Shown piece after piece: positions 1,535 to 16,700 of a stretch of 64,000 bases of DNA (the first letter of the stretch is position 1; each line of letters starts with the position of its first letter). The stretch lies in NCBI GenBank assembly GCA_963731925.1, contig CAVSXK010000024.1, forward strand, positions 64,147 to 128,146, written 5' to 3'. The notes under the pieces were generated by a model. The model did no database searches. It was given only the letters and a program-made list of their open reading frames with translations, and was not told where the DNA came from. This stretch comes from an uncultured Actinomycetes bacterium (GTDB lineage: Bacteria; Actinomycetota; UBA4738; HRBIN12). The position numbers and the translations under genes were made by a program.

Positions 1535-2608
1535 GTGATCGTCGGTAGCATGGGACGGATGCGCAGAGCCCTGGCCGTGCTCGCCGTGCTCGCGGTCGCG
1601 GGGTCGGTGATCCACTCCGAGGCGACCGAGCAGCCCGGACCCTGGGCGCGCCACCGCGTCGAGCACCGCGGTCCGGCGGCCACGCGATACGTGATCGGTG
1701 CCGCCGGCGACATCGCGTGCCAGAACCAGGCCTTCGGTCCGGGATCGCCCGCCAACTGCCAGTACGACGAGACCGCCGACCTCATCGAGCGCGGGGACCT
1801 CGCCGAAGTGCTCCTGCTCGGTGACAACCAGTACGAGCGGGGAACGTACGCCGCGTACACGAGCTACTTCGATCCCACGTGGGGACGGTCGATCTCGAAC
1901 CTGTCGCCCGCACCCGGCAATCACGAGTACGCGAACGATCCCTCGTCCAGTCCCCGGGGCTACTTCCGCTACTTCGGGAACCGCGTGAAGGGTCCGGACG
2001 GGCTCGGCTACTACTCGTTCGACCTCGGTGCGTGCCCCGACGACCCGTGCTGGCACCTGATCTCGTTGAACTCGGAGCTCTGCTTCGCGGCCGGCGGCTG
2101 CGGGCCGGCCGCGGATCCGTCCGACCCCGGCCCGGGCAACCGCATGCACGCCTGGCTGGCGGCCGACCTCGCCGAGCACCCCGACGCCGAGTACCCCTGC
2201 ACGCTCGCGTACTGGCACCACCCCCGGTTCTCGTTCTCGACCGGGAGCGGCGCGACGAGCGCCGTCGGCCCGCTCTGGCACCTGCTCTACGAGGCGCGGG
2301 CCGACGTGGTCCTGAACGGCCATTCGCACAACTACCAGCGCTGGCGGCCCATGGATCCGGACGGGGACCTGGACCGTGTCGCGGGGATCCGGGAGTTCGT
2401 GGTGGGAACGGGGGGCCGGAGCCACTACGCGCTGCCGAGCGGCACCGCGCCCGAGAACCTCCTCTCGGCACAGGCCGACGCGTTCGGCATCCTCCGACTG
2501 ACGCTCAAGGCAGAGGCCTATCGGTGGAGATGGGTGTCGGCGGCCGGCCAGCCCGCGTTCGACGACGCCTCCGACCACGGCGTCCGGTGCGTGCGAACTA
2601 GCCCTTGA
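1535..2608 (+). CDS. secreted metallophosphoesterase (calcineurin-like phosphoesterase)
   Basis: 357-aa ORF with signal peptide and metallophosphatase motifs (GDIAC, GDNQYE, GNHEY, NGHSHNYQR). Confidence 0.8.
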   Translation: MIVGSMGRMRRALAVLAVLAVAGSVIHSEATEQPGPWARHRVEHRGPAATRYVIGAAGDIACQNQAFGPGSPANCQYDETADLIERGDLAEVLLLGDNQYERGTYAAYTSYFDPTWGRSISNLSPAPGNHEYANDPSSSPRGYFRYFGNRVKGPDGLGYYSFDLGACPDDPCWHLISLNSELCFAAGGCGPAADPSDPGPGNRMHAWLAADLAEHPDAEYPCTLAYWHHPRFSFSTGSGATSAVGPLWHLLYEARADVVLNGHSHNYQRWRPMDPDGDLDRVAGIREFVVGTGGRSHYALPSGTAPENLLSAQADAFGILRLTLKAEAYRWRWVSAAGQPAFDDASDHGVRCVRTSP

Positions 2609-3404
2609 CGCCCGTGAGCGTCACGCCCTCGACGAACACCCGTTGCGCGAGGAAGAACAGGACGATCACCGGGACCATGAACAGCACCGATGCGGCCATC
2701 GTCAGGTTCCACTGGACGTGGAACTGCGACTCGAACTCGGACAGCGCGATCGAGAGCGTCCACTGGTCGGGGTTTTCCACGAGGTAGAGCAAAGGCGAGA
2801 AGAAGTCGTTCCAGGAGTAGAGGAACTGGAACAGCGCAACCGCCGCGATCGCCGGCTTCGCGAGCGGAACGATGACCCGCGTCATGATCTGGAACTCGCT
2901 CGCCCCGTCGACGCGCGCAGCGTCCGAGAGGTCCTCCGGGATCGTGAGGAAGAACTGTCTCAGCAGGAAGATCGTGAACGCGTCCCCGAAGAACAACGGC
3001 ACGACGAGCGGCTTGATCGACCCGATCCAACCGAACCGCACGAAGATGATGTACAGGGGCACGATCGTCGCCTGGACGGGCAGCATCAGGGTCGAGAGCA
3101 CCAGGAGGAAGACGCCCTGCCGGCCGCGCCAACGGAGCCGCGACAAGGCGTAGGCAACGGGGATGCAGGACACGATCACGCCGATCGTGGCCAGGGCCGC
3201 GATCCGGAACGTGTTCCACGTGTACCGGAGGAGCGGGATCTCCCGGAACACATCCGAGAAGTTCGACCAGCGGAACGGCCGCGGCCACAGCGCCGGGGTG
3301 AGCGCCTGCCGGTCCGTCATGAGCGCCGTGAGGACGATCAGGACCACCGGCAGCAAGAAGACCGCAGAGACCGCGATCAACACGGTGTGGTTCGCCACGC
3401 CCAT
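2598..3404 (-). CDS. carbohydrate ABC transporter permease (MalG/UgpE-like)
   Basis: C-terminal 268 aa of the 594-aa ORF: six TM helices and the EAA-type signature (DAARVDGASEFQIMTRVIVPLAKPAIA). Upstream in-frame sequence is R-rich garbage, so start is placed at ATG 3404. Confidence 0.85.
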   Translation of the reverse strand: MGVANHTVLIAVSAVFLLPVVLIVLTALMTDRQALTPALWPRPFRWSNFSDVFREIPLLRYTWNTFRIAALATIGVIVSCIPVAYALSRLRWRGRQGVFLLVLSTLMLPVQATIVPLYIIFVRFGWIGSIKPLVVPLFFGDAFTIFLLRQFFLTIPEDLSDAARVDGASEFQIMTRVIVPLAKPAIAAVALFQFLYSWNDFFSPLLYLVENPDQWTLSIALSEFESQFHVQWNLTMAASVLFMVPVIVLFFLAQRVFVEGVTLTGVKG

Positions 3405-3496
3405 CAGGAAGCGGCGGCGGCGAACGTCGGGTGCCTCGGGGCGTCGGACGATCTGCGCGGCTTCGCGAGGTCGGGACCGGACGGCGGTGTCAACGG

Positions 3497-4420
3497 CTAT
3501 TTGAACCCACCCGCCTGATAGTGGACCCAGTGCCTGGACGAACGGATCAGCAGCGCGGTGCAGGCGAGCGTGAGCAGCAGCAGCATCCAGGCCATCGCCG
3601 ACGCGTAGCCCATCCGGAAGTCGGAGAAGCCCTTCAGGTACAGGTAGATCGAGTAGAAGAGCAGCGACCCCTGTGGGCTCCCGACGGCAGCCGAGGCCTC
3701 CTCCGTCGCCTGGCCGGAGACGGCGAAGCTCGCGACGTACGCCTGCGTGAAGTACTGGAAGCCGGCGATGACGCCGATCACCAGCGTGAAGAACAGCACC
3801 GGCGACAGCGACGGCAAGGTGACGTGTCGGAACTTCTGCCACGGGCTCGCCCCCTCGATGTCCGCGGCCTCGTAGAGCTGCCTCGGGACGTCGAGGAGTC
3901 CGGCCAGGTAGATGATCATCGTCTGTCCGACCACCCACAGGCCGAGGAACAACAGCCCCCATTTCGACCAGAAGGGATCGTAGAACCACAGCGGCGGGTT
4001 CTTGATCCCGATGCCGGAGAGCAACTGGTTCACCGGTCCGGTGGCCGGATTGAAGATCACGAAGAACGCGAGTGCCGCCGCCACCGGGGGCGCCATCGTC
4101 GGGAGGAACAGGATCGTCCGATAGCCCTTCACGCCACGGCGAGGCCTGGTCAGCAACATCGCCGTCCCGAGTGCGACCAGCATCGAGAGCGGAACGCCCA
4201 CGCAGATCATCCAGATCGTGTTCCGCATCGCCTGCCAGAACTGCGGGTCCTTCGTGAACATGAACCGATAGTTGTCGAGCCCGACGAAGCTCGGGGTGGA
4301 GAGCAGGTCGTAGTTCGTGAACGAGTAGTACAGGCTCGCGAGGGCCGGATAGAGGATGAAGACCGAGAACCCGATGATCCACGGCGACATGAACAGCGCC
4401 GCGGTGGTGTAGCGCCTCAC
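3497..4420 (-). CDS. carbohydrate ABC transporter permease (MalF/UgpA-like)
   Basis: Real part of the 458-aa ORF: ...ALFMSPWIIGF... and EAA loop (EAADIEGASPWQKFRHVTLP). The conserved N-terminal pattern RRYTTAALF-SPWIIGF shows the start is upstream of ATG 4390. GTG 4420 chosen; CTG 4483 is also possible. Confidence 0.8.
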   Translation of the reverse strand: MRRYTTAALFMSPWIIGFSVFILYPALASLYYSFTNYDLLSTPSFVGLDNYRFMFTKDPQFWQAMRNTIWMICVGVPLSMLVALGTAMLLTRPRRGVKGYRTILFLPTMAPPVAAALAFFVIFNPATGPVNQLLSGIGIKNPPLWFYDPFWSKWGLLFLGLWVVGQTMIIYLAGLLDVPRQLYEAADIEGASPWQKFRHVTLPSLSPVLFFTLVIGVIAGFQYFTQAYVASFAVSGQATEEASAAVGSPQGSLLFYSIYLYLKGFSDFRMGYASAMAWMLLLLTLACTALLIRSSRHWVHYQAGGFK

Positions 4421-4508
4421 CGTGGCGCGACGGGCCGCCGGCCTCCTCTTGGGGAGGGGCCGGCGACCCGTCGACGAGGTCAGGGCCTGTGCGATCCCGC
4501 CTCCGTCC

Positions 4509-5855
4509 TCAGGACGCCGCCTCGATCTCGTCGTTGATCTGCTGTGCGACCGCCTGCAGTCCCGCCTGGAGATCGGCGACGTCTCCCGCCTGCCAGCGCT
4601 CCGCGAAGTCGCCGAGGAGGTTCTGATCGGTCGATCCGATGATGGACATGTCCTTGTAGTGGGACCCCGGGTTCCCGAAGATGTCGAGGAACGTCTGGAA
4701 CTGCTCGGGCAGGTCCAGCTCGGGAGACTCGAGCGAGGGCAGCGTGGTGGGGACGTTGCCGATCGCGTTCGCCGCCGCGACGAGCGAGTCCGTGTCGGTC
4801 GCCATGAACGACACGAGCAGCCACGCCTCTTCGGGGTGCGCCGACCCGCGGGGGATCCCGATGATCGTTCCACCGACGCGACCGATGCCGTACGTGTCCG
4901 CCTTCTCGTCCGGCACGGGGAACGGCGCCGTCGCGTAGTTCAGGCCTGGGGTCCCGTTCGCGATGAACGCGGTCCGCCACTCCCCGTCGATCGCCATCGC
5001 GATCCGGCCGTTCTGGAAGTCCTGGCTCGCCTCGCCCCACTCGTCGCCCTGTCCGGCGACGAACTTCCGCAGGTTGTCCGCGCCGTAGAAGTCGACGAGG
5101 TCCTTCTGCCACTGGAAGAGCTCGACCCAGTCGGGGTCCGTCCCGATCGCCGAGGTCCCGTCGTCGTTGTAGAAGTCCGCGCCGAAGGTGATCGCCAGTT
5201 CCGGCGGGGTCATCATGTAGTAGCCGAACCACGGGACGAACCCGGCGCGCTCGATCGAGCCGTCCGCGTTGAACACCGTCAGGTCCTTCGCCATCTGCGT
5301 GAGCTCGGACATGGTCTGCGGCGGCTCGGTGTAGCCCGCCTCCTCGAGGATGTCCGTGTTGTAGTACAGGCCGAGCGCGTCCGTGAGGAACGGGAACGCG
5401 CACTGCTTGCCGCCGAACCCCGTGTACCGGGCGACCGACGGCGGGAACACGCTCGCGTCGAAGTCTGTCGCCTCGGTGTACGGCGTGAGGTCCTGCCACG
5501 CGCCCGTGTCGCAGAACGCGGGGAGATCGTCCAGCGACCACGACATCACCGCGTCCGGAGGCGTCCCGGCGCGGATCGCGCTGATCACCTTCTGGTCGCT
5601 CGCGACGCCCTTCCGCACGTCGACCGTGATCCACGGGTACTCCTGCTCGAATCGATCGAAGACCTGCTGGACACCCGCGACCTCGTGGTCCGCGCTGAAC
5701 GGTATCCACATCTCGATCGTGACCGGCTCCTGCTCCTCGCCGGCCGCTCCGGTCTCACCGAGACCTTCGGGTACCTCGCTCTCACCGTCACCTGCCGTGC
5801 ATGCCGCGGCGATGAGTCCGAACACCGCCAGCACCACCAGCCATCGCTTCATCAT
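4509..5855 (-). CDS. ABC transporter substrate-binding lipoprotein (family 1 extracellular solute-binding, sugar-type)
   Basis: 448 aa with signal peptide plus lipobox (LIAAACTAG) and SBP_bac_1-like composition. SD GAGAGGGGG upstream. Forms an operon with the two permeases. Confidence 0.9.
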   Translation of the reverse strand: MMKRWLVVLAVFGLIAAACTAGDGESEVPEGLGETGAAGEEQEPVTIEMWIPFSADHEVAGVQQVFDRFEQEYPWITVDVRKGVASDQKVISAIRAGTPPDAVMSWSLDDLPAFCDTGAWQDLTPYTEATDFDASVFPPSVARYTGFGGKQCAFPFLTDALGLYYNTDILEEAGYTEPPQTMSELTQMAKDLTVFNADGSIERAGFVPWFGYYMMTPPELAITFGADFYNDDGTSAIGTDPDWVELFQWQKDLVDFYGADNLRKFVAGQGDEWGEASQDFQNGRIAMAIDGEWRTAFIANGTPGLNYATAPFPVPDEKADTYGIGRVGGTIIGIPRGSAHPEEAWLLVSFMATDTDSLVAAANAIGNVPTTLPSLESPELDLPEQFQTFLDIFGNPGSHYKDMSIIGSTDQNLLGDFAERWQAGDVADLQAGLQAVAQQINDEIEAAS

Positions 5856-5877: not shown

Positions 5878-7053
5878 TCAACGTCCTCTCACGTCCTCGC
5901 TCGAACCGCCACCCAACACGCTCATCGCGGAGCCACCCCCTTGCGTGCGCGTGAAGAGCAGATCCTGGGCCACCTGCAGCGCCATCCACACCGCTCCGAG
6001 GACGACGGCCTCCTCGCCGAGCGGCGAGATCTCCAGCCGCACCTTGAACGGCAAGATCGCCTTGAGTGCCTGCCTCACCGGCTCGAGGAGCAGGTCACCG
6101 TTCCGCCCGATCCCGCCGCCCAAGATCACCAGCTCGGGGTCGACGATCGGGACGATCGCTGCGATCGCGAGCGCGATCTGTTCGGCCTCCAGGGCGACGA
6201 CGCGTTGTGCGATGCGATCGCCGCGACGGGCGGCCGCGAACACGTTCCGCGGGGAGACCGGCGGCTTCATCCCGAGCTCTCGAGCGATGGCGACCACGCC
6301 CGACGCTCCGGCACGCGTGTCGAGGGCCCCGCGCTTGCGGAGCGATCGATCCTTCGGATCCCCGATCAGGGGGAGGTACCCGACCTCGCCGGCCGCTCCG
6401 GTCTCGCCCCGATACAGCTCGCCGCGCATGACGAGCCCGGCGCCGACACCCGTACCGACGTGCAGGTACACGAAGTTCGCGACGTCCTTGCCCAGGCCGA
6501 GCCACTGCTCCCCGAGCGCCGCAAGGTTCACGTCGTTCTCGATGCCGACCTTGGTTCCGAGCCCCTCCTGCACCGCCTGCACCAGACCCGTCCTGCCCCA
6601 TCCGGGCAGGGCGTGGGCGAGGGCGACGTGCCCCGTGACCGGATCGAAGACACCCGGGCTGCCGACCGTCGCGAAGGTCACCTGCTTCCAGCGCACGCCC
6701 GCCTCGGCGGCGAGCCCGTGAGCGATCTCGCCGATCTGGGAGATGAGCGTGCGCTGGCTCCGCACCCGTGCTCGCTCGTCCCGACGCGCGACGATGTCCC
6801 CGGAGAGGTTCGCGATGGCGGCACGCACGTAGTCGCGGCCGACGTCGAGGCCGACCACCCACCCCGCTCGAGGGTTCAACTCGTACAGGACCGCAGACGG
6901 TCCACGGCTCCCGCTCGACCGCCCCGCCTCCCGGACGAGGCCCGCGTCGACCAACGCGACGAGCGCCTGCGAGACCGTCGGCTTGGACAGGTCGCTGTCC
7001 CGAGCGATCTGGGCCCGGGAGACGGGCCCCATCTGCCGGACGAACTCGAGCAC
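5878..7053 (-). CDS. ROK-family transcriptional regulator (NagC/XylR-like repressor)
   Basis: N-terminal wHTH (SRAQIARDSDLSKPTVSQALVALVDAGLV). ROK sugar-kinase-like core with ATP/zinc motifs (GLDVGRDYVRAA, HVGTGVGAGLV, GETGAAGEVGYLP). Confidence 0.85.
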   Translation of the reverse strand: MLEFVRQMGPVSRAQIARDSDLSKPTVSQALVALVDAGLVREAGRSSGSRGPSAVLYELNPRAGWVVGLDVGRDYVRAAIANLSGDIVARRDERARVRSQRTLISQIGEIAHGLAAEAGVRWKQVTFATVGSPGVFDPVTGHVALAHALPGWGRTGLVQAVQEGLGTKVGIENDVNLAALGEQWLGLGKDVANFVYLHVGTGVGAGLVMRGELYRGETGAAGEVGYLPLIGDPKDRSLRKRGALDTRAGASGVVAIARELGMKPPVSPRNVFAAARRGDRIAQRVVALEAEQIALAIAAIVPIVDPELVILGGGIGRNGDLLLEPVRQALKAILPFKVRLEISPLGEEAVVLGAVWMALQVAQDLLFTRTQGGGSAMSVLGGGSSEDVRGR

Positions 7054-7164
7054 CGAACGCTCGTTGATCGCCTTCAGCAGGCTCGGCGTGCCGGCGGCGA
7101 ACGGGTGAACGGCCGTTTGGTGCGCCCCCTCTAGTTCGGTTCGCTCTCGTCTCGAGTAGCTCTA

Positions 7165-7184
7165 GTTCGGAAACTTTCCTAACT
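7165..7184. promoter_or_regulatory. operator-like palindrome GGAAACTTTCC (gttcGGAAACTTTCCtaact) in the ROK / eda-kdgK divergent intergenic region
   Basis: An AT-rich 11-bp inverted repeat in a 70% GC genome. A 15-nt block is identical (as reverse complement) to 11726-11740. Lies ~30 nt upstream of the eda start and ~115 nt upstream of the ROK start. Confidence 0.55.
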
Positions 7185-7210
7185 ATTCTCGCCGATGCTA
7201 CGCTCGACCC

Positions 7211-7855
7211 CTGAGCGCAGTCAAGGCACCCCGTCCGGACACCACGATCTTCGATACCCGCAGGGTTCTCGCGGTCGTACGGTTCCGAGATCCGTGCGAC
7301 CTCGACGCGATCGTCGAGGCGATACGTCGTGGCGGCATCGACCTCGTGGAGGTGACGGCGGACACGCCCGGCGCGATCGACGCGGTGCGACGAGCTGCAC
7401 GGGCCGGGGCCCCGGTGGGGGCGGGGACGATCGGCTCGGCGACGGAAGCGCGGGCGTTCGGCGAGGCGGGAGCCGCCTTCCTCGTGAGCCCCGGGGTGAT
7501 GCCGGAGGTCGTACGGGTCGCCGTCGAGCTGGGCATCCCTGCGGTGCCGGGGGCGCTCTCCCCGACCGAGATCGCGACGGCCCAAAGAGCCGGGGCAACC
7601 GCCGTGAAGCTCTTCCCGGCGAGCCTCGGCGGTCCCGGCTACCTGCGGGTCCTTCGAGGCCCGTTCTCCGACGTGCGTTTCGTCCCGACCGGAGGCATCG
7701 AGCCCGCCGACGTGAGGTCGTGGTTGGACGCGGGCGCCACGTGCGTCGGGCTTGGTTCCGCACTCGTCGGGGCCACCCCTCCCGCAACGCCCGGCGACCT
7801 CCGAGCGCTGACCGAGCGTGCACGTCGCGTCGTGCGGCTCGCGGGGCGGCGATGA
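7211..7855 (+). CDS. eda: 2-dehydro-3-deoxyphosphogluconate (KDPG) aldolase / KHG aldolase
   Basis: Track ORF 7346..7855 (GTG) is truncated. The same frame upstream reads ...TTIFDTRRVLAVVRFRDPCDLDAIVEAIRRGGIDLVEVTADTPGAIDAV..., aligning to the Eda N-terminus. The only in-frame candidate start is CTG 7211, so the start is uncertain or affected by an indel. Ends in an ATGA overlap with kdgK. Confidence 0.75.
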   Translation: MSAVKAPRPDTTIFDTRRVLAVVRFRDPCDLDAIVEAIRRGGIDLVEVTADTPGAIDAVRRAARAGAPVGAGTIGSATEARAFGEAGAAFLVSPGVMPEVVRVAVELGIPAVPGALSPTEIATAQRAGATAVKLFPASLGGPGYLRVLRGPFSDVRFVPTGGIEPADVRSWLDAGATCVGLGSALVGATPPATPGDLRALTERARRVVRLAGRR

Positions 7856-8760
7856 CGCCGGTTCCCGATGTCATCGCGCTGGGTGAGACCATGCTCTCGC
7901 TCATCGCCGTCGGGGTCCCGCTCGCCGAGGCATCCGAGCTCCGCGTGACGCACGGCGGTTCCGAGAGCAACACGTGCGTCGGGCTCGCTCGGTTGGGACT
8001 TCGGGCCGCGTGGGTGAGCCGTCTCGGTTCGGATCAAGCCGGGGATCGGATCGCTTCGGATCTCGGTCGCGAGGGCGTCGACCTCCGGTGGGTGCGCCGC
8101 GACCCAGAACGGCCCACCGGGCTGATGCTGCGCGGAACGTCGGGCGCGCCGGCCCGGTACGAGCGCGCCGGCTCCGCGGCGAGCGCGCTCTCCCCGAGCG
8201 ATCTCGACGGCGTTCCGGTGGAGGATGCCGGGGCCGTGATCACGAGCGGGATCACCGCCATGCTCGGTGCGGGTCCGCAGGAAACGGCGATCGCGCTGCT
8301 GGAACGCGCCCGCGGGCTCCGCGTGGTCGATCCGAACCTGCGTCTCGGCCTCTGGGGCTCGGACCGAGCCGGCGAGCTCGTCCGGCCCCTGCTCGAGCGC
8401 GCCGACCTCGTGCTCGGCGGGGAGGCCGAGCTCGCCGCGCTCGTCGGGGGCATCGGGCGCGAGCTCGCCGAGCGATGCCGCGACCTCGGACCGAGCGAGG
8501 TCGTCCTGAAGCTCGGCGCGGACGGGGCGGCGGCGTTCGACGAGGAGGGCAGGTGGTGCGAGGTGCGTCCGCCGCGGAGCGCCGAGGTCGACCCGGTCGG
8601 CGCCGGCGACGCGTTCGACGCCGGGTATCTCGCTGCCCGGCTGCGAGGGGCGTCGGTGGAGGACGCCCTCCGGCAGGGGGCGCGTTGCGGCGCCGGCGTG
8701 GCGGGGATGGTCGGAGACACCGCGGGCTTCCCCACGCTCGCCGAGATCGAAGGAGGGTGA
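7852..8760 (+). CDS. kdgK: PfkB-family sugar kinase, 2-dehydro-3-deoxygluconokinase-like
   Basis: MTPVPDVIALGETMLSL..., GSESNT, C-terminal DPVGAGDAFDAGYL (PfkB anion hole). Translationally coupled to eda (ATGA). Confidence 0.8.
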   Translation: MTPVPDVIALGETMLSLIAVGVPLAEASELRVTHGGSESNTCVGLARLGLRAAWVSRLGSDQAGDRIASDLGREGVDLRWVRRDPERPTGLMLRGTSGAPARYERAGSAASALSPSDLDGVPVEDAGAVITSGITAMLGAGPQETAIALLERARGLRVVDPNLRLGLWGSDRAGELVRPLLERADLVLGGEAELAALVGGIGRELAERCRDLGPSEVVLKLGADGAAAFDEEGRWCEVRPPRSAEVDPVGAGDAFDAGYLAARLRGASVEDALRQGARCGAGVAGMVGDTAGFPTLAEIEGG

Positions 8761-8762
8761 CG

Positions 8763-9158
8763 ATGACGAGAGACGCCCGGCAGCCCGAGGGCGTGGCCCG
8801 ACCGGCGCTTCCGTACAGCCCGGTCGTCGTGACCGGCGATCTGGTCTTCACCGCGGGACAGGTCGCACTCGATGCCCGGGGCGACCTGGTCGCCGGAGGG
8901 ATCGAAGCGCAGACCGCGCAGGTGCTCGACAACCTCGCGCGCTGTCTGGACGGCGTGGGCTGTTCGATGGAGGACGTCGTGAAGGTGACGGCGTTCCTGG
9001 CCGATCTCGCCGATGCCGACGGCTACAACCGTGTCTACGCGACACGGTTCGCCCCGCCCTACCCGGCTCGCTCGACGGTCGGAGCGCGGCTGGCCGACAA
9101 CCTGCTCGTCGAGATCGAGGCGATCGCGCGACGGGCCGGCGACGGAGCCAACCTCCTA
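8763..9158 (+). CDS. ridA: RidA/YjgF family reactive-intermediate (enamine/imine) deaminase; no in-frame stop
   Basis: MTRDARQPEGVARPALPYSPVVVTGDLVFTAGQVALDARGDLVAGGIEAQTAQVLDNL...LVEIEAIARRAG matches RidA over ~130 aa. The frame then reads through antisense of the convergent DSD1-like gene until 10448. The stop was presumably lost to an indel; the end coordinate is approximate. Confidence 0.65.
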
Positions 9159-10427
9159 GAAGAACGTCGCGATGGCGTCGACGACCCGGTCGCCGTCGTC
9201 CAGGACCGGGAGTACGCGCCAACGATCGAGCGCCGAGCAGGGGTGCGAGATCCCGCACATGAGGAGGTCGCCGACCCCCAGGGAGACGCCGCTCCCGACG
9301 CGGCAGTACGCGTGTTGGTCGTCGAGCGAGGTGATCTCGATCCGTCCGTCGATGCGCTCCACCTCTCCCCCGGCTCGTCGAACGAGGGTCGGCGTCGGAT
9401 ACCCCCGGTCGAACGGCACGTCGCGTCGTCCGAGACCCACCAGCGCGAGCCCTCGTTCGGGGGTGGAGAGCACGGCCCCCCAGGCTTCGAGCGTGGGATG
9501 GAAGCGGCGCTCGAGAGGCTCGTTCGCGAACGGCGAGGAGCGGGCGTCCGGGCCCGAGTCGTGGATCAGGTAGGAGCCGCAACGCAGGAGCACGGTCGAC
9601 GGCCCGGACCCGCCGCCGGCCAGCCGGTCGACGACGAGGTCGAAGAACAGGCTCCCCCCGGCCGTCACGATCGGCTCGCGCGCGAACGCACCCTCCTCGA
9701 GCAAGCGCATCGCCAAGCCACCAAGGTCGTCGAGGAACGCCTCCACCTGACCGAGGCTCGCCGGAGATCGATCGTGCGCGATCGTCCCTTCGTAGCCGGC
9801 GACCCCGGCGAGATCGAGCAGCTTCGAGCGTTCGACGGCGCGGGCCACCTCGATCGCCTCCGGCAGGCTCCGGCATCCCGTTCGACCCGCCCGGTGACCC
9901 AGCTCGACGAGGACCGAGAGAGGCCGATCCTCGCGGGAGTCGCGGACCCCCTCTTCGAGGAGGGCGACCCCACGGGTCGAATCGACCAGGCACACGAGCT
10001 CGGTCGTCTCCTCCGCGATGTCGGCGGCGGCCCACCGGAGCGACCCCGGGTCGGTGAGCTCGTTCGCGAGCAGCACTCGTCGCACCCCGGCCGCGCGCAG
10101 CACCCGCGCCTGTGTGGCCCCCGCGGCGCTCATCCCCCAGCCGCCCGCGTCGAGCTGCTTCCACCAGAGCTGGGGAGCCATGGTCGTCTTGGCGTGCGGC
10201 GCGATCGACACCCCATGCTGCCCGCAGTACCCGGCCATCAACCGGACGTTGTGCTCGAGCGCCGTCCGACGCAGCACGAGGACCGGTGGGACGAGGTCCG
10301 CGAACGTCCACCCCTGGTCCCCCGCCTCGAGCAACGGGACGGGCTCCGCGATCGTGGGGAATCCCTTGGTCGTGGACCCGACCCGGACCTCGGCCAGCAG
10401 CGCCTCGGCCCCGGCCGCGCTGGTCAT
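9156..10427 (-). CDS. DSD1-family PLP-dependent enzyme (alanine-racemase-fold N-domain plus D-serine-dehydratase-like C-domain); candidate amino-sugar-acid dehydratase
   Basis: 423 aa from ATG 10427 (MTSAAGAEALLAEV...). PLP-lysine region HAKTTMAP typical of the fold-type III DSD1 / D-threo-3-hydroxyaspartate dehydratase family. Start overlaps the GH4 stop (ATGA). Confidence 0.8.
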   Translation of the reverse strand: MTSAAGAEALLAEVRVGSTTKGFPTIAEPVPLLEAGDQGWTFADLVPPVLVLRRTALEHNVRLMAGYCGQHGVSIAPHAKTTMAPQLWWKQLDAGGWGMSAAGATQARVLRAAGVRRVLLANELTDPGSLRWAAADIAEETTELVCLVDSTRGVALLEEGVRDSREDRPLSVLVELGHRAGRTGCRSLPEAIEVARAVERSKLLDLAGVAGYEGTIAHDRSPASLGQVEAFLDDLGGLAMRLLEEGAFAREPIVTAGGSLFFDLVVDRLAGGGSGPSTVLLRCGSYLIHDSGPDARSSPFANEPLERRFHPTLEAWGAVLSTPERGLALVGLGRRDVPFDRGYPTPTLVRRAGGEVERIDGRIEITSLDDQHAYCRVGSGVSLGVGDLLMCGISHPCSALDRWRVLPVLDDGDRVVDAIATFF

Positions 10428-11692
10428 GAACGGAAGCGCGGCAGATGATCGCGGTTCGCGTCGAGGATCGCGGTGAGCAGGCCCGAGGCGGTCGGGTAGT
10501 CGGGCACGAGCGGGTTCGACAGCAGCGCCCTCAGCGCCAGCACGCGGTCGCCGCTCGTCGCCGCGCGGATCGTGAGCCGCTCGTACGCCTTGGCGTGCTG
10601 CACCAGCCCGAGCATCTCCTCCGAAAGCGGCGCGACCGGCAGGGGGTGAGCGCCTTCGGCATCGATCGTCGCTGCGACCTCGACGACGTCGTCGAGGGGG
10701 AGGTTGGGGATCGCGCCGGCGTTCCGGACGTTGACCACCTGCACGTCGCCGGTCCCGGCCGCGAGCGACGCAACGAGCTCCGCGGCGGCCTCGCTGTAGT
10801 AGGCGCCGCCGCGTCGCTCGAGGAGCTCGGGCTTCTCGGTCAGGTTGGGGTCCCGGTACATCTCGAGCAGCCGCGCCTCGATCTCCATGACCTCTTCGGC
10901 CCGCGTCCTCCCACGGCGTTGCTCCTCGACGATCTCTCGCGTCAGGTAGTAGTAGCGGAGGTAGTACGACGGGACGGCCCCGAGAGCCCGGATCAGCTCG
11001 GATGGCATGTCCGTCTCGCGCGAAAGCTCTGGGAGGTCGGTCTCGAGCAGCGCGGGGAGTCGGTCGACTCCGTCGACCATCACCGCACGCACCCACGAGA
11101 GGTGGTTGAGCCCGACGTGCTCGAGCTGCACCCGCTGCGGCTGCACGTCGAACCGGGTCGCGAACCGGCGCTGGAGGTTGATCGCGACGTTGCACAGACC
11201 GAGCGCCCGATGGCCCTCGTCGATCAGGGCCTGGGTGACCATGCCCGTCGGGTTCGTGAAGTCGACGAACCATGCCCCGGGCGCGCCGCGGCGAGCCGTG
11301 AGCTCCGCGAGCTCGAGCACGACGGGGATCGTCCGAAGCGCTTTGGCGAACCCACCCGGGCCGGTCGTCTCCTGCCCCACGCACCCGAACCGGGGCGGGA
11401 TCGTCTCGTCGGACAGGCGCGCGGCCTGACCGCCGACCCGAAGCTGGACGATCACGAAGCCCGCGCCCTCGAGGGCTTCGTCGCGATCGGTGGTGAGGAT
11501 CAGGTGACCCCCGTACCCGGCACGGTCGAGCATCCGGCCCGCGAGCCCACCGACGACGTCGAGCCGATCCCTGTCCACGTCGAGCAGGGCCAGCTCGTCG
11601 ACGGGGAAGCGCTCGATGCGGCGGACGAAGCCCTCCACGAGCTCGGGGGTGTAGGTGCTCCCGGCCCCGACCACGGCTACCTTCACACCCAT
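10424..11692 (-). CDS. glycoside hydrolase family 4 (NAD+/Mn2+-dependent 6-phospho-glucosidase / alpha-glycosidase)
   Basis: 422 aa from ATG 11692: MGVKVAVVGAGSTYTPELV (Rossmann NAD site), GH4 signature region ...CNVAINLQRRF..., and a typical C-terminal domain. Confidence 0.85.
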   Translation of the reverse strand: MGVKVAVVGAGSTYTPELVEGFVRRIERFPVDELALLDVDRDRLDVVGGLAGRMLDRAGYGGHLILTTDRDEALEGAGFVIVQLRVGGQAARLSDETIPPRFGCVGQETTGPGGFAKALRTIPVVLELAELTARRGAPGAWFVDFTNPTGMVTQALIDEGHRALGLCNVAINLQRRFATRFDVQPQRVQLEHVGLNHLSWVRAVMVDGVDRLPALLETDLPELSRETDMPSELIRALGAVPSYYLRYYYLTREIVEEQRRGRTRAEEVMEIEARLLEMYRDPNLTEKPELLERRGGAYYSEAAAELVASLAAGTGDVQVVNVRNAGAIPNLPLDDVVEVAATIDAEGAHPLPVAPLSEEMLGLVQHAKAYERLTIRAATSGDRVLALRALLSNPLVPDYPTASGLLTAILDANRDHLPRFRS

Positions 11693-11717
11693 CGCCGGGC
11701 ATCGTACACTCACGCCG

Positions 11718-12791
11718 ATGAATTGGTTAGGAAAGTTTCCTGACCCATTCCTGGCCGAGATCGCCGGGCAGGCAGAGGCGATTCGCCGCGCCGCGGGCTC
11801 ACTCGAGGAGCAGGTCCCCACCCTCGACGCGCTGGGCGAAGCGGCGGGGCGAGGTGGCGGCGTCGTGTTCACCGGCATGGGCAGCTCGTACGACGCGTGC
11901 TACCCGGCGGTGAACGAGCTGGCCGCTCGAGGCGTGCCGGCGCTCCACGTCGACGCGGCCGAGCTCCTGCATTTCCGGACCAACGCGCTGTCGTCGGACA
12001 CCGTGCTCGTCGTGGTGAGCCAATCGGGCGAGAGCGCCGAGATCGTGCACCTCGCCGCATCGCTGAATGCCCGCCCGGACCCGCCGCTGATGACGTCGCT
12101 CACGAACGGGCTCGCGAACGAGCTCGCGGAGCGGGCCGACCTTCGACTCGACACCCGCGCGGGCCCGGAGACCGGCCCGTCGACCATGACGTTCGCGGCC
12201 TCGATGGCGCTCCTCGCGGCGGTGGCGCCGATCCTCGGCGGGGACACGACCGCCGATGCCACCGCGCGCGCTCGAACGGGGGCGGAGCGGGCGGCCGGCG
12301 CGGTCGAGGCGTTCATGGAGGTGGGCGACGCCACGGGCTCGTTGCTCGAGGACGTCGTCGACGGGCGCGAGATCCTGGCGGTGCTCGGCCGAGGCTCGGC
12401 GCGGGCGGCCGCCGAGATGGGGGCGCTGACGTTGAAAGAGAGCGGGGTGATGGCCGAGTCGTTCGCGACGGCGAGCTTCCGCCACGGACCGTTCGAGCTC
12501 GCGGGGCCGGACATGGCGGCGATCATCCTGTCGACCGAGGAGCAGACCCGAACGCTGGATCTCGGCCTCGCGGCGGATCTGGCGAGCACGGGCGCATCCG
12601 TCGCCGTGATCGCGCCCGGCGAGGAGGTTCCCGCCGGTTGTGCCCGGATCCACCTCCCCGGCCTCGACCGCCTGTTCTCTTCGACGGTCGGGGTCGTGCC
12701 GCTCCAGTTGCTCGCGTGGCGGCTCGCGCTGCGCCACGGCCGCGCCCCCGGCGTCTACACACGCGCGTCGAAGGTGACCACACGTGAGTGA
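11718..12791 (+). CDS. double SIS-domain sugar-phosphate isomerase/deaminase (GlmS-isomerase-domain-like; GlmD/NagB-II/AgaS/FrlB family)
   Basis: 357 aa starting MNWLGKFPDPFLAEIAGQ.... SIS motifs VFTGMGSSYDA and VVVSQSGESAE. C-terminal second SIS domain (RHGPFEL). The paralog at 15626 has the same N-terminal register. Confidence 0.85.
   Translation: MNWLGKFPDPFLAEIAGQAEAIRRAAGSLEEQVPTLDALGEAAGRGGGVVFTGMGSSYDACYPAVNELAARGVPALHVDAAELLHFRTNALSSDTVLVVVSQSGESAEIVHLAASLNARPDPPLMTSLTNGLANELAERADLRLDTRAGPETGPSTMTFAASMALLAAVAPILGGDTTADATARARTGAERAAGAVEAFMEVGDATGSLLEDVVDGREILAVLGRGSARAAAEMGALTLKESGVMAESFATASFRHGPFELAGPDMAAIILSTEEQTRTLDLGLAADLASTGASVAVIAPGEEVPAGCARIHLPGLDRLFSSTVGVVPLQLLAWRLALRHGRAPGVYTRASKVTTRE
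11726..11744. promoter_or_regulatory. second copy of the GGAAAGTTTCC operator-like palindrome (gttaGGAAAGTTTCCtgac)
   Basis: Reverse complement shares 15/15 nt with 7169-7183. Lies 34-52 nt upstream of the GH4 start on the opposite strand. Overlaps codons 3-9 of the SIS gene, which use unusually AT-rich codons (tta gga aag ttt cct). Confidence 0.55.
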
Positions 12792-13398
12792 ACGGCTACG
12801 GACGGCGCTCACGTTCGACGCGGAGCACCCGGACCGGCCGAACGCCTCCGCGGGAGCCGCCGAACGGATCCTGGACGTCCTCGAGGATGCGGGGGCCCGT
12901 GCGACGTTCTTCCTCCAGTCGCGGTGGGCGATGGCGAACCCCGAACTCGCTCGTCGGATCGCAGACGCCGGCCACCTGGTCGGCAACCACTCGACCTACC
13001 ATGCCCGCATGACGCTGTTCTCCGACGACGGCATCCGGGTCGACGTGCGACAGGCCGGCGACACCATCGCCGAGCTGGCGGGCGTCGACCCGCGCCCCTG
13101 GTTCCGGTGCCCGTTCGGAGACGGCCACGACGATCGCCGCGTGCTCGACGTCCTCGAGGAGCTCGGGTATCGGAACGTGCACTGGCACGTGGAGTCCGAG
13201 GACTGGGAACCGTGGAGGACGCCGGCGGAGATCGGCCGAGCGAGCGTGGAGGGCGCGATCGCGCACGGCGACGGTGCCGTCGTCCTGCTCCACACGTGGC
13301 CCCGAGCGACGGCTGCGGCCCTGCCGATCGCGCTCGAGGGGTTGGAGCGCGCGATGGCCTCGCTGGTCACGATCGACGAGCTCGAGGAGCTGCCGTGA
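12784..13398 (+). CDS. polysaccharide deacetylase (NodB homology domain, carbohydrate esterase family 4)
   Basis: CE4 motifs: TFDAEHPD, ATFFLQSRWA (resembles the TFFL... motif), LVGNHSTYHARM (His-His metal site), RCPFGDGHD. GTG start overlaps the SIS stop. Confidence 0.8.
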   Translation: MSERLRTALTFDAEHPDRPNASAGAAERILDVLEDAGARATFFLQSRWAMANPELARRIADAGHLVGNHSTYHARMTLFSDDGIRVDVRQAGDTIAELAGVDPRPWFRCPFGDGHDDRRVLDVLEELGYRNVHWHVESEDWEPWRTPAEIGRASVEGAIAHGDGAVVLLHTWPRATAAALPIALEGLERAMASLVTIDELEELP

Positions 13399-14414
13399 GC
13401 CGGCCCGCGGTGCTCGCGATCGACGGCGGAGGATCGAAGATCGACGCGGTCCTGATCGATCGGGACGGAGCGATCGCCGGGAGCGCTCGCGTGGAGCCTT
13501 CGGACACCGACGGCCAACGGGCGGGCGACCTCGCGGCGATCGGGCTGGCGGTCAAGGCGGCATGCCGTGACGCGCGGATCGACACCGACGAACTGCCCGT
13601 CGCGCGCCTCGGCGTGTTCTGTCTCGCCGGCGCGGATCTTCCCGCCGACGACCGAAGGATCCTCCGTTCGCTCGAGCCGCACCGGTGGACCACCGACACG
13701 ATCCTTCGCAACGACACGTTCGCGGTGCTCCGTGCCGGAACCAACCGGACCTGGGGGGTGGGGGTGGTCTGCGGGTTCGGGACCAACTGCTCGGCGGTGG
13801 CTCCCGACGGTCGGACGTATCGCTTCCCCGCCCTGGGATGGATCGCCGGCGACTGGGGTGGCGGTGCCGACATCGGAGAGGCCGCGATCTGGCACGCCGT
13901 GCGATCCGAGGACGGCCGAGGCGAGCGGACGTCCCTGGCGAGCGCCGTGCCCGCCCACTTCGATCTCCGCCGGCCGAGACAGGTCATGGAGGCGATGTAC
14001 TTCGGCCGTTTGAGCGTGAGCCGGATCGCCGAGCTCCCTCCGTTGGTGTTCGAGGCGGCGGCGGACGGCGACGCCGTCGCCCGATCGATCGTCGATCGCC
14101 AGGCGGACGAGGTCGTGTCGATGGCGACGGCCGCGATCCGACGCCTGCGGATGACGGAGCTCGACGTCCACGTGGTCCTGGGCGGCGGCATCTTCCGCAA
14201 CACGTTCGTACCGTTCCTCGAGCGGGTCGACGACGGGATCCATCGCTCGGCCCCGGCGGCCAGCGTGACCGTCCTCGGTGCACCACCGGTGGTGGGCGCG
14301 GCCCTGCTCGGACTCGACCGCCTGCGCGCGTCCCGCACCGCGAAGGACCGCCTGCGGACCACCTTGACCAAGGATCCGGTCGGCAACAGACTCGATGGCA
14401 AGCGGCGGAGGTAG
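13395..14414 (+). CDS. BadF/BadG/BcrA/BcrD-type ATPase, N-acetylglucosamine-kinase-like sugar kinase
   Basis: N-terminal AIDGGGSKIDAVL (actin-fold phosphate-1 loop). VVCGFGTNCSA. C-terminal VLGGGIF. GTGA overlap with the deacetylase stop. Confidence 0.8.
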   Translation: MSRPAVLAIDGGGSKIDAVLIDRDGAIAGSARVEPSDTDGQRAGDLAAIGLAVKAACRDARIDTDELPVARLGVFCLAGADLPADDRRILRSLEPHRWTTDTILRNDTFAVLRAGTNRTWGVGVVCGFGTNCSAVAPDGRTYRFPALGWIAGDWGGGADIGEAAIWHAVRSEDGRGERTSLASAVPAHFDLRRPRQVMEAMYFGRLSVSRIAELPPLVFEAAADGDAVARSIVDRQADEVVSMATAAIRRLRMTELDVHVVLGGGIFRNTFVPFLERVDDGIHRSAPAASVTVLGAPPVVGAALLGLDRLRASRTAKDRLRTTLTKDPVGNRLDGKRRR

Positions 14415-14416
14415 AG

Positions 14417-15607
14417 ATGGCGCGGATCGTCCTCGATGGTGTGACGAAGGTCTTCGGGACCGACGTGGTGGCGGTCGACGACGTGTCGCTCGAGATCGCC
14501 GACGGCGAGTTCATGGTCCTCGTCGGTCCATCGGGCTGCGGGAAGTCCACGATCCTTCGCATCCTCGCCGGACTCGAGGAGGTGACGGCCGGCGAGGTGT
14601 ACATCGGCGAGAGGCAGGTCACGGACCTCCCACCGAAGGCGCGGGACATCGCGATGGTGTTCCAGAACTACGCGCTCTACCCACACATGACCGTCGAGCA
14701 GAACCTCGGGTTCGGTCTCAAGCTCCGCAGGATGCCGAAGGACGAACGAGGCCACCGGGTGCACGACGTCGCGAAGATCCTCGGTCTCGACGGACTGATG
14801 GAGCGCAAGCCGGGTGAGCTGTCCGGCGGCCAGCGTCAGCGCGTGGCGATGGGTCGAGCGATGGTTCGAGAGCCGGTCGCGTTCCTGATGGACGAACCAC
14901 TGTCGAACCTCGACGCGAAGCTCAGGGTCCAGATGCGCGGGCAGTTCGCCAAGCTTCACGATCGCCTGCGCACGACGACGGTGTACGTGACGCACGATCA
15001 GGTCGAAGCGATGACGCTCGGACAGCGCGTGGCGGTCCTGCGCGACGGCATGCTGCAGCAGGTCGACACGCCGCAGCGTCTGTATCAGTACCCGGCGAAC
15101 CTGTTCGTCGCAGCCTTCATCGGATCGCCGCCGATGAACCTCGTGGGTGCCGAGGTTCGGGGAGGCGCGGTCCGCTTCGCGGGCTTCGAGATCCCTTTGC
15201 CGGCCGACCGGGCCCCGGACGGCCTCGAGGGTCGCGAGCTGATCCTCGGGATACGGCCATCGGATCTGGAGGACACGGCCGTGTGGACGGGACAGGACCT
15301 GCCCACGATCACCGTCCTCGCGGACGTCACCGAGGACCTCGGCTCCGAGGTGAACGTGCTGTTCACGGTGGACGCACCGCCCGTAGAGACCGACGAGACG
15401 CTCGCCGCGACCGAGCAGGACGAAGGCGAGATCCCTCTCCTCGCCGAGGAGCACCGCGCCGTCTTCTGCGCGCGGGTGGACCCCCGGACCTCGTGCGGGC
15501 CCGGGACGCCGATCCGCCTCTCGGTCGACCCACGCCGGTTCCACTTCTTCGATCCCGAGACGGGGCAGGCGCTCACGACCGAGCCCGCCGCGGTAGCCAG
15601 CGCCTGA
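14417..15607 (+). CDS. msiK: sugar ABC transporter ATP-binding protein (MalK/UgpC/MsiK family)
   Basis: Walker A GPSGCGKST, signature LSGGQRQRVA, Walker B FLMDEPLSNLD, H-loop VTHDQ. C-terminal TOBE/MalK regulatory domain. GGAGG SD 7 nt upstream of ATG. Confidence 0.9.
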   Translation: MARIVLDGVTKVFGTDVVAVDDVSLEIADGEFMVLVGPSGCGKSTILRILAGLEEVTAGEVYIGERQVTDLPPKARDIAMVFQNYALYPHMTVEQNLGFGLKLRRMPKDERGHRVHDVAKILGLDGLMERKPGELSGGQRQRVAMGRAMVREPVAFLMDEPLSNLDAKLRVQMRGQFAKLHDRLRTTTVYVTHDQVEAMTLGQRVAVLRDGMLQQVDTPQRLYQYPANLFVAAFIGSPPMNLVGAEVRGGAVRFAGFEIPLPADRAPDGLEGRELILGIRPSDLEDTAVWTGQDLPTITVLADVTEDLGSEVNVLFTVDAPPVETDETLAATEQDEGEIPLLAEEHRAVFCARVDPRTSCGPGTPIRLSVDPRRFHFFDPETGQALTTEPAAVASA

Positions 15608-15625
15608 GGCCGTAGACTCGGGCGC

Positions 15626-16700
15626 ATGAGATCGCTCGAAGGCTTCTCCGACCGCTTCCTCGGCGAGATCGCGGGCCAGCCCGACGCGATGCGACGAGCC
15701 GCGGCGGCCCTCGTCGACCAGCGCGAGGCGCTCGACCGGATCCGCGAAGCCAGCGCGGCCTCGCGCACCATCGTCTTCACCGGCATGGGGGGCTCGTACG
15801 ACGCCTGCTACCCGGCGGTGAACGACCTCGCGGCGCGGGGCGTCCCCGCATTGTTGGTAGATGCCGCGGAGGTCCTGCACTTCCGAAGGCCGATCCTGAA
15901 CGCGCAGACGCTCGCCGTCGTCGTCAGCCAGTCCGGCGAGAGCGCCGAGATCGTGCGCCTGGTGAACGAGCTCGCCAAGCAACGCACGCGGCCGTTCGTG
16001 GTCGCGATCACGAACGGCACCAACAACGACCTGAGCCGGCGGGCTGACATCGAGCTCGACACGTGGGCGGGACCGGAGTCCGGGCCCTCGTCGATGACCT
16101 TCGCGGCCTCGATGACCACGCTCTCCGGTCTGGCCCGGCTCCTCGCCGGCGACAGCGTCGACACCGCGGTCGATCGAACCCGGACGGCGGCGGAGGGAGC
16201 CGCGCGCTCGGCCGAACGGCTCCTCGACGACCCCGAGGCGTTCGCGACCGATCTCGAGGCGTGGCACGGGGGTCGGGACGTGATCGTGCTTGCTCGGTCG
16301 CGGGCCGGCGCGGGCGGCGACCGAGCTCGGAGCGCTCGTCCTGAAGGAATCCGGCGTGATGGCCGAGTCGCTGGAATCCGGTCTGTTCCGTCACGGCCCG
16401 TTCGAGCTCGCCGGCCCGAACATGAGCGCGATCGTCATGGCGACCGAGCCGGAGACCCGGCGGCTCGACCTCGGGCTCGCGGCCGACCTCGTCGACGCGG
16501 GGAGCGCCGTCATGGTGGTCACGCCCGACGGCGAGGCGCCGAAGGGAGCGCGGCCCGTCGCGACGGGCTATCTGGACCGAGCGCTGATGTCGGCGGTCGC
16601 GGTGATCCCCACGCAGCTCCTCGCCTGGCGGCTCGCGGGCGCGCGGGGACGCACGCCCGGCGCGTACACCAGAGCGTCGAAGGTCACGACCCGCGAATAG
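15626..16700 (+). CDS. double SIS-domain isomerase/deaminase paralog; frameshifted near 16293
   Basis: N-terminal ~220 aa in frame of 15626 (MRSLEGFSDRFLGEIAGQ..VFTGMGGSYDA..VVVSQSGESAE). C-terminal ~135 aa in frame of 16290 (LGRGPARAATELGALVLKESGVMAES...RASKVTTRE), co-linear with the 11718 paralog. A single indel lies at ...VIVL|ARS. Confidence 0.7.

Follow-up and report, generated by a model that had tools for sequence, protein, structure and literature searches.

The gene for a sugar isomerase (SIS)-domain protein in a 64-kb stretch of DNA from an uncultured Actinomycetes bacterium (the window; GC content ~70%) carries a 13-bp palindrome, AGGAAAGTTTCCT, within codons 4-8 of its reading frame. 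It is very probable that this palindrome is a CsnR-type operator, to which a repressor of the ROK family would bind, and that it lies inside a coding sequence because the gene is read from a compact bidirectional promoter junction giving it a leaderless mRNA. The type of element, the CsnR box, is already known; its location in a coding sequence is unusual. The coordinates of this site and of the features around it are collected in Table 1.

CsnR is a ROK-family repressor of the chitosanase and chitosan-oligosaccharide uptake genes (csnA, csnREFGHK) in Streptomyces; its box has the consensus AGGAAANTTTCCT, in which positions 5 and 9 are the chief binding determinants, and its best inducer in vitro is the glucosamine dimer, (GlcN)2 (PMC6097792). 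The site in the SIS gene agrees with this consensus at 13 of 13 positions, A5 and T9 included, and its core resembles the S. lividans site CCTCTTCTGGTAGGAAACTTTCCTATCAGT, which was footprinted as GGTAGGAAACTTTCCTATC (PMC4856308). When the window was searched with the 15-mer around the palindrome, allowing up to three mismatches, a single further site was recovered in the 64 kb (7167-7181; 0.14 expected by chance). Occurrences of GGAAANTTTCC with at most one mismatch were likewise confined, in the window, to the SIS site and to 7168-7180. This second copy, which lies 4.55 kb from the first and near the gene of a ROK-family regulator, matches the consensus at 12 of 13 positions, the mismatch being at position 1. 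The sequence-only reading that first pointed to the SIS site had its sequence and coordinates right but placed it in codons 3-9. Counted from ATG 11718, the stretch aat tgg tta gga aag ttt cct gac forms codons 2-9, with aat as codon 2 and the core in codons 4-8, and the conserved block actually reaches codon 11 (11721-11750).

Codon usage was counted in 28 confidently called window genes, 10,492 codons in all (GC content at third codon positions, GC3, of 0.91). In this background TTA accounts for 1 of 1163 leucine codons, TTT for 1 of 403 phenylalanine codons and AAT for 3 of 192 asparagine codons, while CCT and CCA each make up 4.7% of proline codons and GGA makes up 10.8% of glycine codons. 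Given the peptide, the joint probability of the synonymous choices in the operator stretch is ~6e-12. The sequence-only reading had named tta, gga, aag, ttt and cct as disfavoured, which is correct for all but aag, the preferred lysine codon (96% of lysine codons). It had also contrasted the site with an SIS paralog further along the window, and this comparison stands: the gene at 15626, which has no box, reads tcg ctc gaa ggc ttc tcc gac at the corresponding codons.

For comparison, we assembled 78 loci, scanning one genome per species, all of them metagenome-assembled genomes (MAGs) of uncultured soil Actinomycetota. Boxes were called in these loci at up to one mismatch, which gave a box-bearing group A of 51 sequences (50 MAG loci and the window) and a group B of 27 box-less, paralog-type loci. 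The offset of the box is constant, at nucleotides 12-24 of the SIS coding sequence in 50 of the 78 MAG loci. A scan of metagenomes with the extended box GTTAGGAAANTTTCCTGAC matched at least 120 contigs, and the SIS-type placement was found in 81 of the 122 full-context matches among those listed. Within group A, codons 4, 5, 7, 8 and 10 are each occupied by one rare A- or T-ending codon at 93-100%: codon 4 is TTA in 94% and codon 10 is CCA in 93%, and codons 5, 7 and 8 are GGA, TTT and CCT wherever the majority residue is retained. GC3 is 0-0.06 at codons 2, 4, 5, 7, 8 and 10 compared to 0.8-1.0 at codons 11-40. Among pairs of codons specifying the same residue in the 51 sequences of group A, synonymous identity is 0.95 over codons 2-11 and 0.55 over codons 12-50.

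The centre base of the palindrome, which is the third base of codon 6 and is free in the published consensus, is C or G in 51 of 51 group A sequences and in 97 of 97 metagenome coding copies among the matches listed. Codon 6 is thus AAC (Asn) or AAG (Lys), and AAT and AAA were never seen in group A or in these metagenome coding copies. As the centre base is always G or C, codon bias resurfaces at the sole base that the operator leaves free. The sequences of group B retain L4, F7, D9, P10 and F11, spelled CTC, TTC, GAC, CCG and TTC, and their glycine codon at the box-equivalent residue is GGC. The contrast in synonymous identity, the occurrence of the same 13-mer in non-coding DNA ahead of the ROK gene in almost all loci and the match to a published consensus together support the proposal, made in the sequence-only reading, that a DNA-level signal overrides codon bias at the start of the SIS gene.

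A mis-assigned SIS start, which would leave the site in an untranslated leader with translation beginning further downstream, is highly unlikely; it draws support only from the general difficulty of calling starts in high-GC DNA. There is no in-frame ATG, GTG or TTG between SIS codon 1 and codon 51, and codon 51 lies within the conserved TGMGSS core, so the operator is translated if the SIS protein is made at all. The best 120 SIS homologues (58-97% identity) are nearly all 355-357 aa long, align over their full length and begin at the same residue, with N-termini of the form M[KN]WLGKFPD[PS]F, M[KR]SLGNFPDPF or, in a paralog-like subgroup, MRSLEGFSDPF. The position of the start codon is kept in 50 of 51 box-bearing loci (73% ATG and the rest GTG, with no TTG; in the exception, L074, a GTG lies one codon upstream) and in ~97 metagenome copies among the matches listed. 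Residues 9-15 (DPFLAEI) are conserved, and helix 1 of the protein begins at residue 10. The sequence-only reading had considered a true start further downstream, with the site in the leader; instead, the homologues start together, and a -10 hexamer sits 7 nt before the ATG.

The divergent start codons of the SIS gene and of the adjoining gene for a family 4 glycoside hydrolase (GH4) are separated by 25 nt, as had been read from the sequence (11693-11717, between the GH4 ATG at 11692-11690 on the minus strand and the SIS ATG). A promoter scan of this junction returned TTCACA-17-TACACT at 11682-11710 (9/12 matches; 0 expected in shuffles). A TANNNT hexamer (TACACT or TAGACT) ends 6-9 nt, mostly 7, before the SIS start in 78 of 78 loci, and the -35 element TTCACA or TCACAC is kept in group A. 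As the hexamer holds this position in every locus, the SIS mRNA is probably leaderless, and with the -10 only 7 nt upstream there is no room for a leader or a ribosome-binding site; the predicted transcription start is 11717 or 11718. Leaderless mRNAs of Corynebacterium have a TANNNT layout and starts restricted to AUG or GUG (PMC5784534).

On the other strand, the distance between the GH4 and SIS starts is 24-26 nt in 46 of 51 box-bearing loci, and every locus with a divergent GH4 gene has a reverse-strand ANNNTA at 8-9 nt from the GH4 start. Of the 51 box loci, 48 have the A that this reverse hexamer requires and the other 3 lack GH4; the A is found in 0 of 27 paralog loci. The predicted divergent starts, 11717 and 11694, are 23 bp apart, and bidirectional promoters with overlapping -10 elements fall into transcription start site (TSS) spacing classes of 10, 18 and 23 bp (PMC12825309). 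In Streptomyces and Kitasatospora, CsnR operators lie between promoter and ribosome-binding site or overlap the TSS (PMC5635096; PMC3048496). With respect to its predicted TSS, the SIS site takes up an equivalent place. Since the SIS mRNA would have no leader and the GH4 start is only 25 nt away, the operator could sit only inside a coding sequence. The -35 of the SIS promoter itself falls within GH4 codons: the string TTCACAC[CT]CA[TC], which spells the GH4 glycine codon as GGT, occurs in 47 of 51 box-bearing loci (11682-11692; GH4 ATG GGT GTG AAG), and codon choice may here, too, be constrained by a DNA signal, though more mildly.

From these observations, we propose the following mechanism. 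The ROK regulator encoded 4.6 kb to the left would be the likely binder of the site, with a second box in its own leader. The GH4/SIS junction would act as a compact bidirectional promoter, with rightward transcription starting at or 1 nt before the SIS ATG and leftward transcription, from the -10 TACGAT, starting 0-2 nt before the GH4 ATG. With no leader on either transcript, the place that the operator usually takes, shortly after the transcription start, would lie in the SIS frame at +12 to +24. A repressor sitting there would obstruct RNA polymerase at the SIS promoter. The same site would also span about -25 to -47 of the GH4 promoter, including its -35 region. One repressor bound there could therefore block both promoters, and both operons may be held shut from this single site until the repressor is released by glucosamine oligomers. 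The codons TTA GGA AA[G/C] TTT CCT, and hence the peptide L-G-K/N-F-P, would be fixed by selection on the DNA.

Several observations weigh against this proposal. All promoters in this work are sequence predictions. The GH4 -35 is poor (TAACCA), and the GH4 -10 depends mainly on one conserved A together with a conserved CATCG, so that control of GH4 by the operator is the weakest step. As L4, F7, D9, P10 and F11 are also kept in the box-less paralogs, part of the peptide may be under protein-level selection. Finally, the first 60 nt of the SIS mRNA are predicted to form a 13-pair hairpin from nt 3 (dG -23.8 kcal/mol, z -3.3).

This last observation bears on a different explanation, that an RNA hairpin at the 5' end of a leaderless mRNA is the selected feature, acting in translation initiation or mRNA stability, with the DNA role secondary or absent. 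The hairpin z score is -1.7 in locus L007 compared to +0.4 in the box-less paralogs. The stem is extended by the conserved flanks GTT/GAC and AAT/ATT, and the asymmetric T/G at +/-7 would form a G-U pair in RNA. However, the hairpin arms are invariant and show no compensatory changes, and the one variable stem pair (nt 8/nt 28) is mismatched (C vs C) in most sequences. The 13-mer that precedes the ROK gene has a variable left flank and can form a stem of only 4-5 pairs. The motif is, moreover, an experimentally defined protein-binding site, and any transcribed palindromic operator yields a hairpin automatically. We therefore regard this explanation as improbable: the hairpin is most simply a by-product of the operator, possibly with a side effect on the leaderless mRNA.

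The same structure bears on the idea that the A- and T-ending codons reflect a general preference for weakly structured 5' coding ends that aid initiation. Codon 2 is AAA or AGA in both box-bearing and box-less groups, as would be expected from general start-proximal A-richness, but the box raises 5' structure compared to the paralog, as the z scores above indicate, and the box-less paralogs have GC-rich codons 4-10 in the same leaderless layout. Nor would such a preference yield an exact 13-bp palindrome that is invariant across species, and we give this idea very little credence. The character of codon 2 can also be described on its own: it is A-rich and rare in both SIS groups, being AAA or AAT (or AGA) in box-bearing genes and AGA in the paralogs (11721-11723; 15629-15631), and AGA makes up 0.7% of arginine codons in the window. 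This A-richness does not depend on the operator; leaderless initiation may favour it.

A further alternative is that the N-terminal peptide, M-K-x-L-G-K/N-F-P-D-P-F, is functional and selected as protein, the palindrome being a coincidence of codons. Amino-acid identity in group A is 0.91 over codons 4-9 compared to 0.52 over codons 12-50, and the residues shared with the box-less paralogs point in the same direction. Selection on the protein, however, leaves unexplained the invariant rare TTA, GGA, TTT, CCT and CCA in genomes with a GC3 of ~0.9, and the paralogs hold L and F with CTC and TTC. The operator DNA also occurs outside genes, as some of the metagenome matches are non-coding ROK leaders with stop codons in the corresponding frame. 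In an AlphaFold2 model of the SIS protein built on a 31-sequence alignment (mean pLDDT, the predicted local distance difference test score, 88.9), residues 1-6 score <50 and no secondary structure precedes the helix at residues 10-27. The LGK/NFP peptide would thus lie in a disordered N-terminal tail that should tolerate it. Finally, the peptide is also found on an unrelated enzyme of carbohydrate esterase family 4 (CE4) and on mini open reading frames (mini-ORFs), as described below, and we consider an origin of the palindrome in protein selection very doubtful.

The operator reading gains from the contexts in which the box occurs. Across 995 kb of loci there are 95 boxes in few contexts: ~52 in SIS codons 4-8 and ~37 upstream of the ROK gene, the remainder being 3 beside another gene and 3 in variants that have lost the SIS gene. 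Two loci (L048, L049) have the SIS gene reduced to a relic ORF of 43-45 aa that keeps the promoter, the start, the box and the peptide MKWLGKFPDSF; the relic in L049 has in addition retained the C-terminal SKVTTRE, which overlaps the start of CE4. L060 carries a duplicate module as a 15-aa mini-ORF, VKSLGKFPDAFGGAD*, which ends 3 nt before the CE4 ATG and reads TTCACA...TACAAT-6-GTG AAA TCG TTA GGA AAG TTT CCT GAC. The module is kept as a relic or mini-ORF in L100, L113 and L121 as well. In L080 it is fused in frame to the CE4 deacetylase (MSSLGNFPDSSGRPRVALTFDAEHPDRP), and L126, L175 and L185 likewise have an in-frame CE4 fusion, VESLGKFPDR.FPQ.VALTFDAEHPDR, with GH4 divergent as usual. As the same module is found on CE4, on relics and on mini-ORFs, the peptide L-G-K/N-F-P tracks the operator and not the enzyme.

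On balance, we lean slightly towards a broader interpretation, in which the junction is a portable cassette that combines a bidirectional promoter with a leaderless start and an operator. The gene that comes first on the rightward side, whatever it is, would inherit the tag M-x-x-L-G-K/N-F-P-D, so that a transcription factor site would write protein sequence, with the free operator base alone obeying codon bias. The palindrome may in addition tune translation or stability of the leaderless mRNA, and the cassette would answer to a repressor apparently started at ACG.

Two other settings of the box were observed. A third context with a perfect box, TTAGTTAGGAAACTTTCCTACCGGATGG, lies between ROK and GH4 genes in three loci (L012:5120, L014:2154, L023:6638) and is a possible further regulon member. 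The extended box also occurs in another conserved context (...gagggtcagtgttcgtatgcgcactgtggggg acc ctt ctG TTAGG...) in L081:828, L088, L133:904 and L164, with no cluster genes nearby.

The likely binder is a ROK-family protein whose frame (5881-7161, minus strand) matched the Pfam ROK model at 3e-45 together with helix-turn-helix models; NCBIfam searches returned generic ROK, NagC and Mlc similarity below cut-offs. The predicted TSS of this gene puts the second box at about +9 to +21 of its leader. A box followed by AACTAT stands upstream of the ROK gene in ~37 loci, and the block AGGAAACTTTCCTAACTATTC-N5/6-GATGCTACGCT-N15/17-GTCAAG is conserved there across loci. In the window, GTG 7053 is the first in-frame ATG, GTG or TTG of the gene. 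Conservation of the protein (T-A-x-H-x-F-A-A-G-T-P-S-L-L-K) nevertheless reaches up to an ACG codon, with GAGGGGG 5-9 nt upstream. An ACG lies 7-10 codons before GTPSLL in 59 of 62 distinct ROK loci, and an ATG takes the same spot in 2; 60 of the 62 have a G-rich, Shine-Dalgarno-like run within 16 nt, and 42 have no canonical in-frame start. It therefore looks as if the ROK repressor is translated from a conserved ACG codon that gene callers miss. When the literature was searched for ACG starts in bacteria, the papers returned all dealt with eukaryotes or viruses.

The intergenic region between the ROK gene and eda, which encodes the aldolase for 2-keto-3-deoxy-6-phosphogluconate (KDPG), has features of its own. 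Its plus strand carries TGcTACGCT (7196-7204), an extended -10-like element whose -35 region is overlapped by the box. Like the GH4/SIS junction, this region is by prediction a conserved bidirectional promoter, the second in the window, whose two -10 hexamers have a TA step in common. The 11-nt sequence CTCTAGTTCGG is directly repeated at 7129-7139 and 7160-7170, 31 nt apart; the first copy may be an extra half-site, and the second is the left flank of operator copy 1. We rejected ATG 7195 as a leaderless eda start: judged by the GC3 profile its frame is wrong, and the codon lies inside the conserved GATGCTACGCT, which reads as the ROK -10 TAGCAT and, on the other strand, as TGcTACGCT. The first canonical start in the KDPG aldolase frame is GTG 7346, and initiation there would cost ~45 conserved residues; other loci, L003 among them, have GAGGG-cac-GTG at the corresponding place. 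A non-canonical start, an indel or a pseudogene could account for this.

The system resembles the CsnR regulon of S. lividans and other actinomycetes (csnA, csnREFGHK) in its 13-bp palindrome, in a ROK gene with its own box that heads an ABC-transporter cluster, in having GH4 and sugar kinase members, and in an operator placed at the transcription start or shortly after it (PMC6097792, PMC3048496, PMC5635096). It differs in that the second operator here lies within the SIS coding sequence, whereas there it is between promoter and ribosome-binding site, and in that GH4 belongs to a separate divergent operon. Its gene content also differs: alongside an SIS enzyme and CE4 there are a kinase of the BadF type, an ATPase resembling msiK, and the set DSD1/Eda/KdgK/RidA. 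Instead of Streptomyces, it is found in soil Actinomycetota that have not been cultured, some of which carry the labels Solirubrobacterales or Gaiellales, and the system is known here from sequence.

Operators within coding regions are familiar from lacO2 in lacZ and galOI in galE, which are auxiliary sites within the gene, tens to hundreds of bp from its start, and act through loops formed with a primary operator. As in these cases, a repressor site here lies in translated sequence, where DNA and protein constraints overlap. Unlike them, the intragenic site is apparently the promoter's sole operator; it follows the start codon at a distance of 11 nt, and in many species it plainly determines both the codons and the peptide.

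The SIS gene resembles actinobacterial leaderless mRNAs in that it lacks a Shine-Dalgarno sequence, starts at ATG or GTG and is preceded by a TANNNT whose distance is fixed (PMC5784534). Leaderless genes do not in general have an operator pushed into their coding sequence, and leaderless status is judged here from conservation. With known bidirectional promoters, the junction shares -10 elements on opposite strands with base pairs in common, starts ~23 bp apart and linked operons (PMC12825309). It differs in that both transcripts are leaderless or nearly so, the whole intergenic region is 25 nt, and one -35 and the operator lie in neighbouring coding sequences, an arrangement that is predicted here. 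In a literature search for operators inside the coding sequences of leaderless actinobacterial genes, the DtxR papers found document leaderless genes but not such an arrangement. In Deinococcus, radiation/desiccation response motif (RDRM) sites can lie in coding regions of leaderless genes.

The site in the SIS gene would be an unusually clear case of bacterial dual coding, with a repressor site and a reading frame on the same 13 bp, the regulatory demand prevailing at all synonymous positions, and a pentapeptide fixed over dozens of species. It carries two built-in controls, the box-less paralogs and the free operator base. Operator searches restricted to upstream regions would miss primary operators of leaderless genes of this kind, and clusters of rare codons at the 5' end can mark such sites. 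The analysis would also extend the CsnR regulon to uncultured soil Actinomycetota, with the SIS deaminase-like enzyme, CE4, the BadF-type kinase and the MsiK-like ATPase as candidate members. For synthetic biology, the junction offers a compact 60-bp module with predicted control of two divergent operons. If the cassette interpretation is true, it is a clean natural case of a transcription factor site writing protein sequence, kept across many species.

Table 1. Features of the GH4/SIS junction, the ROK region and their surroundings (window positions; WHTH, winged helix-turn-helix; PLP, pyridoxal phosphate; KDG, 2-keto-3-deoxygluconate; GlcN-6-P, glucosamine 6-phosphate).
Feature	Position	Strand	Basis or remark
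Core operator AGGAAAGTTTCCT, 13-bp palindrome, perfect CsnR box	11729..11741	strandless	SIS codons 4-8 (tta GGA AAG TTT CCT)
Extended conserved block AAxTxGTTAGGAAAxTTTCCTGACxCATTC, with symmetric flanks GTT/GAC	11721..11750	strandless	SIS codons 2-11; consensus and information content
SIS-domain gene (GlmS isomerase-domain-like, putative GlcN-6-P deaminase), 357 aa, heads rightward operon	11718..12791	+	Pfam SIS, NCBIfam/PDB matches, homologues
Predicted SIS promoter -10 TACACT, 7 nt before ATG	11705..11710	+	Promoter scan; implies leaderless or 1-nt-leader mRNA
Predicted SIS promoter -35 TTCACA, 17-nt spacer, within GH4 codons 2-4 of other strand	11682..11687	+	Promoter scan
Candidate GH4 promoter -10 TACGAT, 8 nt before GH4 ATG, TA step common with rightward -10	11701..11706	-	Locus conservation
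GH4 glycoside hydrolase (csnH-like), protein start MGVKVAVVGAGS, heads leftward operon	10424..11692	-	Pfam Glyco_hydro_4, Glyco_hydro_4C
DSD1-like PLP enzyme (Ala_racemase_N + D-ser_dehydrat), start overlaps GH4 stop by 4 nt	9156..10427	-	Pfam
ROK-family repressor gene, csnR-like (WHTH + ROK domain), likely start ACG 7116-7114	5878..7116	-	Pfam, start-codon comparison
Operator copy 1 CGGAAACTTTCCT, 1 mismatch, in ROK/eda intergenic region	7168..7180	strandless	Motif search
Predicted ROK gene promoter TTGACT-18-TAGCAT, predicted TSS near 7188	7195..7224	-	Promoter scan
Box-less SIS paralog, ATG 15626, frameshift near 16285, own -10 TAGACT 15613-15618	15613..16700	+	GC-rich codons; internal control
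CE4 deacetylase	12784-13398	+	Overlaps SIS end
BadF-type sugar kinase	13395-14414	+	Overlaps CE4 end
MsiK-like ABC ATPase	14417-15607	+	2-nt gap after kinase
RidA	8763-9143	+	
PfkB-type KDG kinase	7852-8760	+	
KDPG aldolase frame	7166-7855	+	
ABC sugar-binding protein, after ROK gene	4509-5855	-	
Two ABC permeases (BPD_transp_1)	~2601-4500	-	

The SIS protein has two domains and the N-terminus MNWLGKFPDPFLAEIAGQ. NCBIfam and PDB searches identified it as GlmS-isomerase-like only, with weak NagB-II and GlmD matches below cut-offs, and its role as a deaminase is putative. The synteny of the rightward operon (12784..15607) is kept in the loci. The cluster contains csnEFG-type transporter genes, GH4 and a kinase, as in csnREFGH, the kinase being BadF-type and not ROK-type. 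The DSD1-like enzyme, RidA, KDG kinase and KDPG aldolase suggest a deaminating route from an amino sugar acid to KDG/KDPG beside the GlcN-6-P deaminase-like SIS route.

The box-less SIS paralog of the window is split into two ORFs (15626-16285 and 16290-16700), as would result from a pseudogene or an assembly error. Its -10 TAGACT lies 7 nt before the ATG, directly after the msiK stop.

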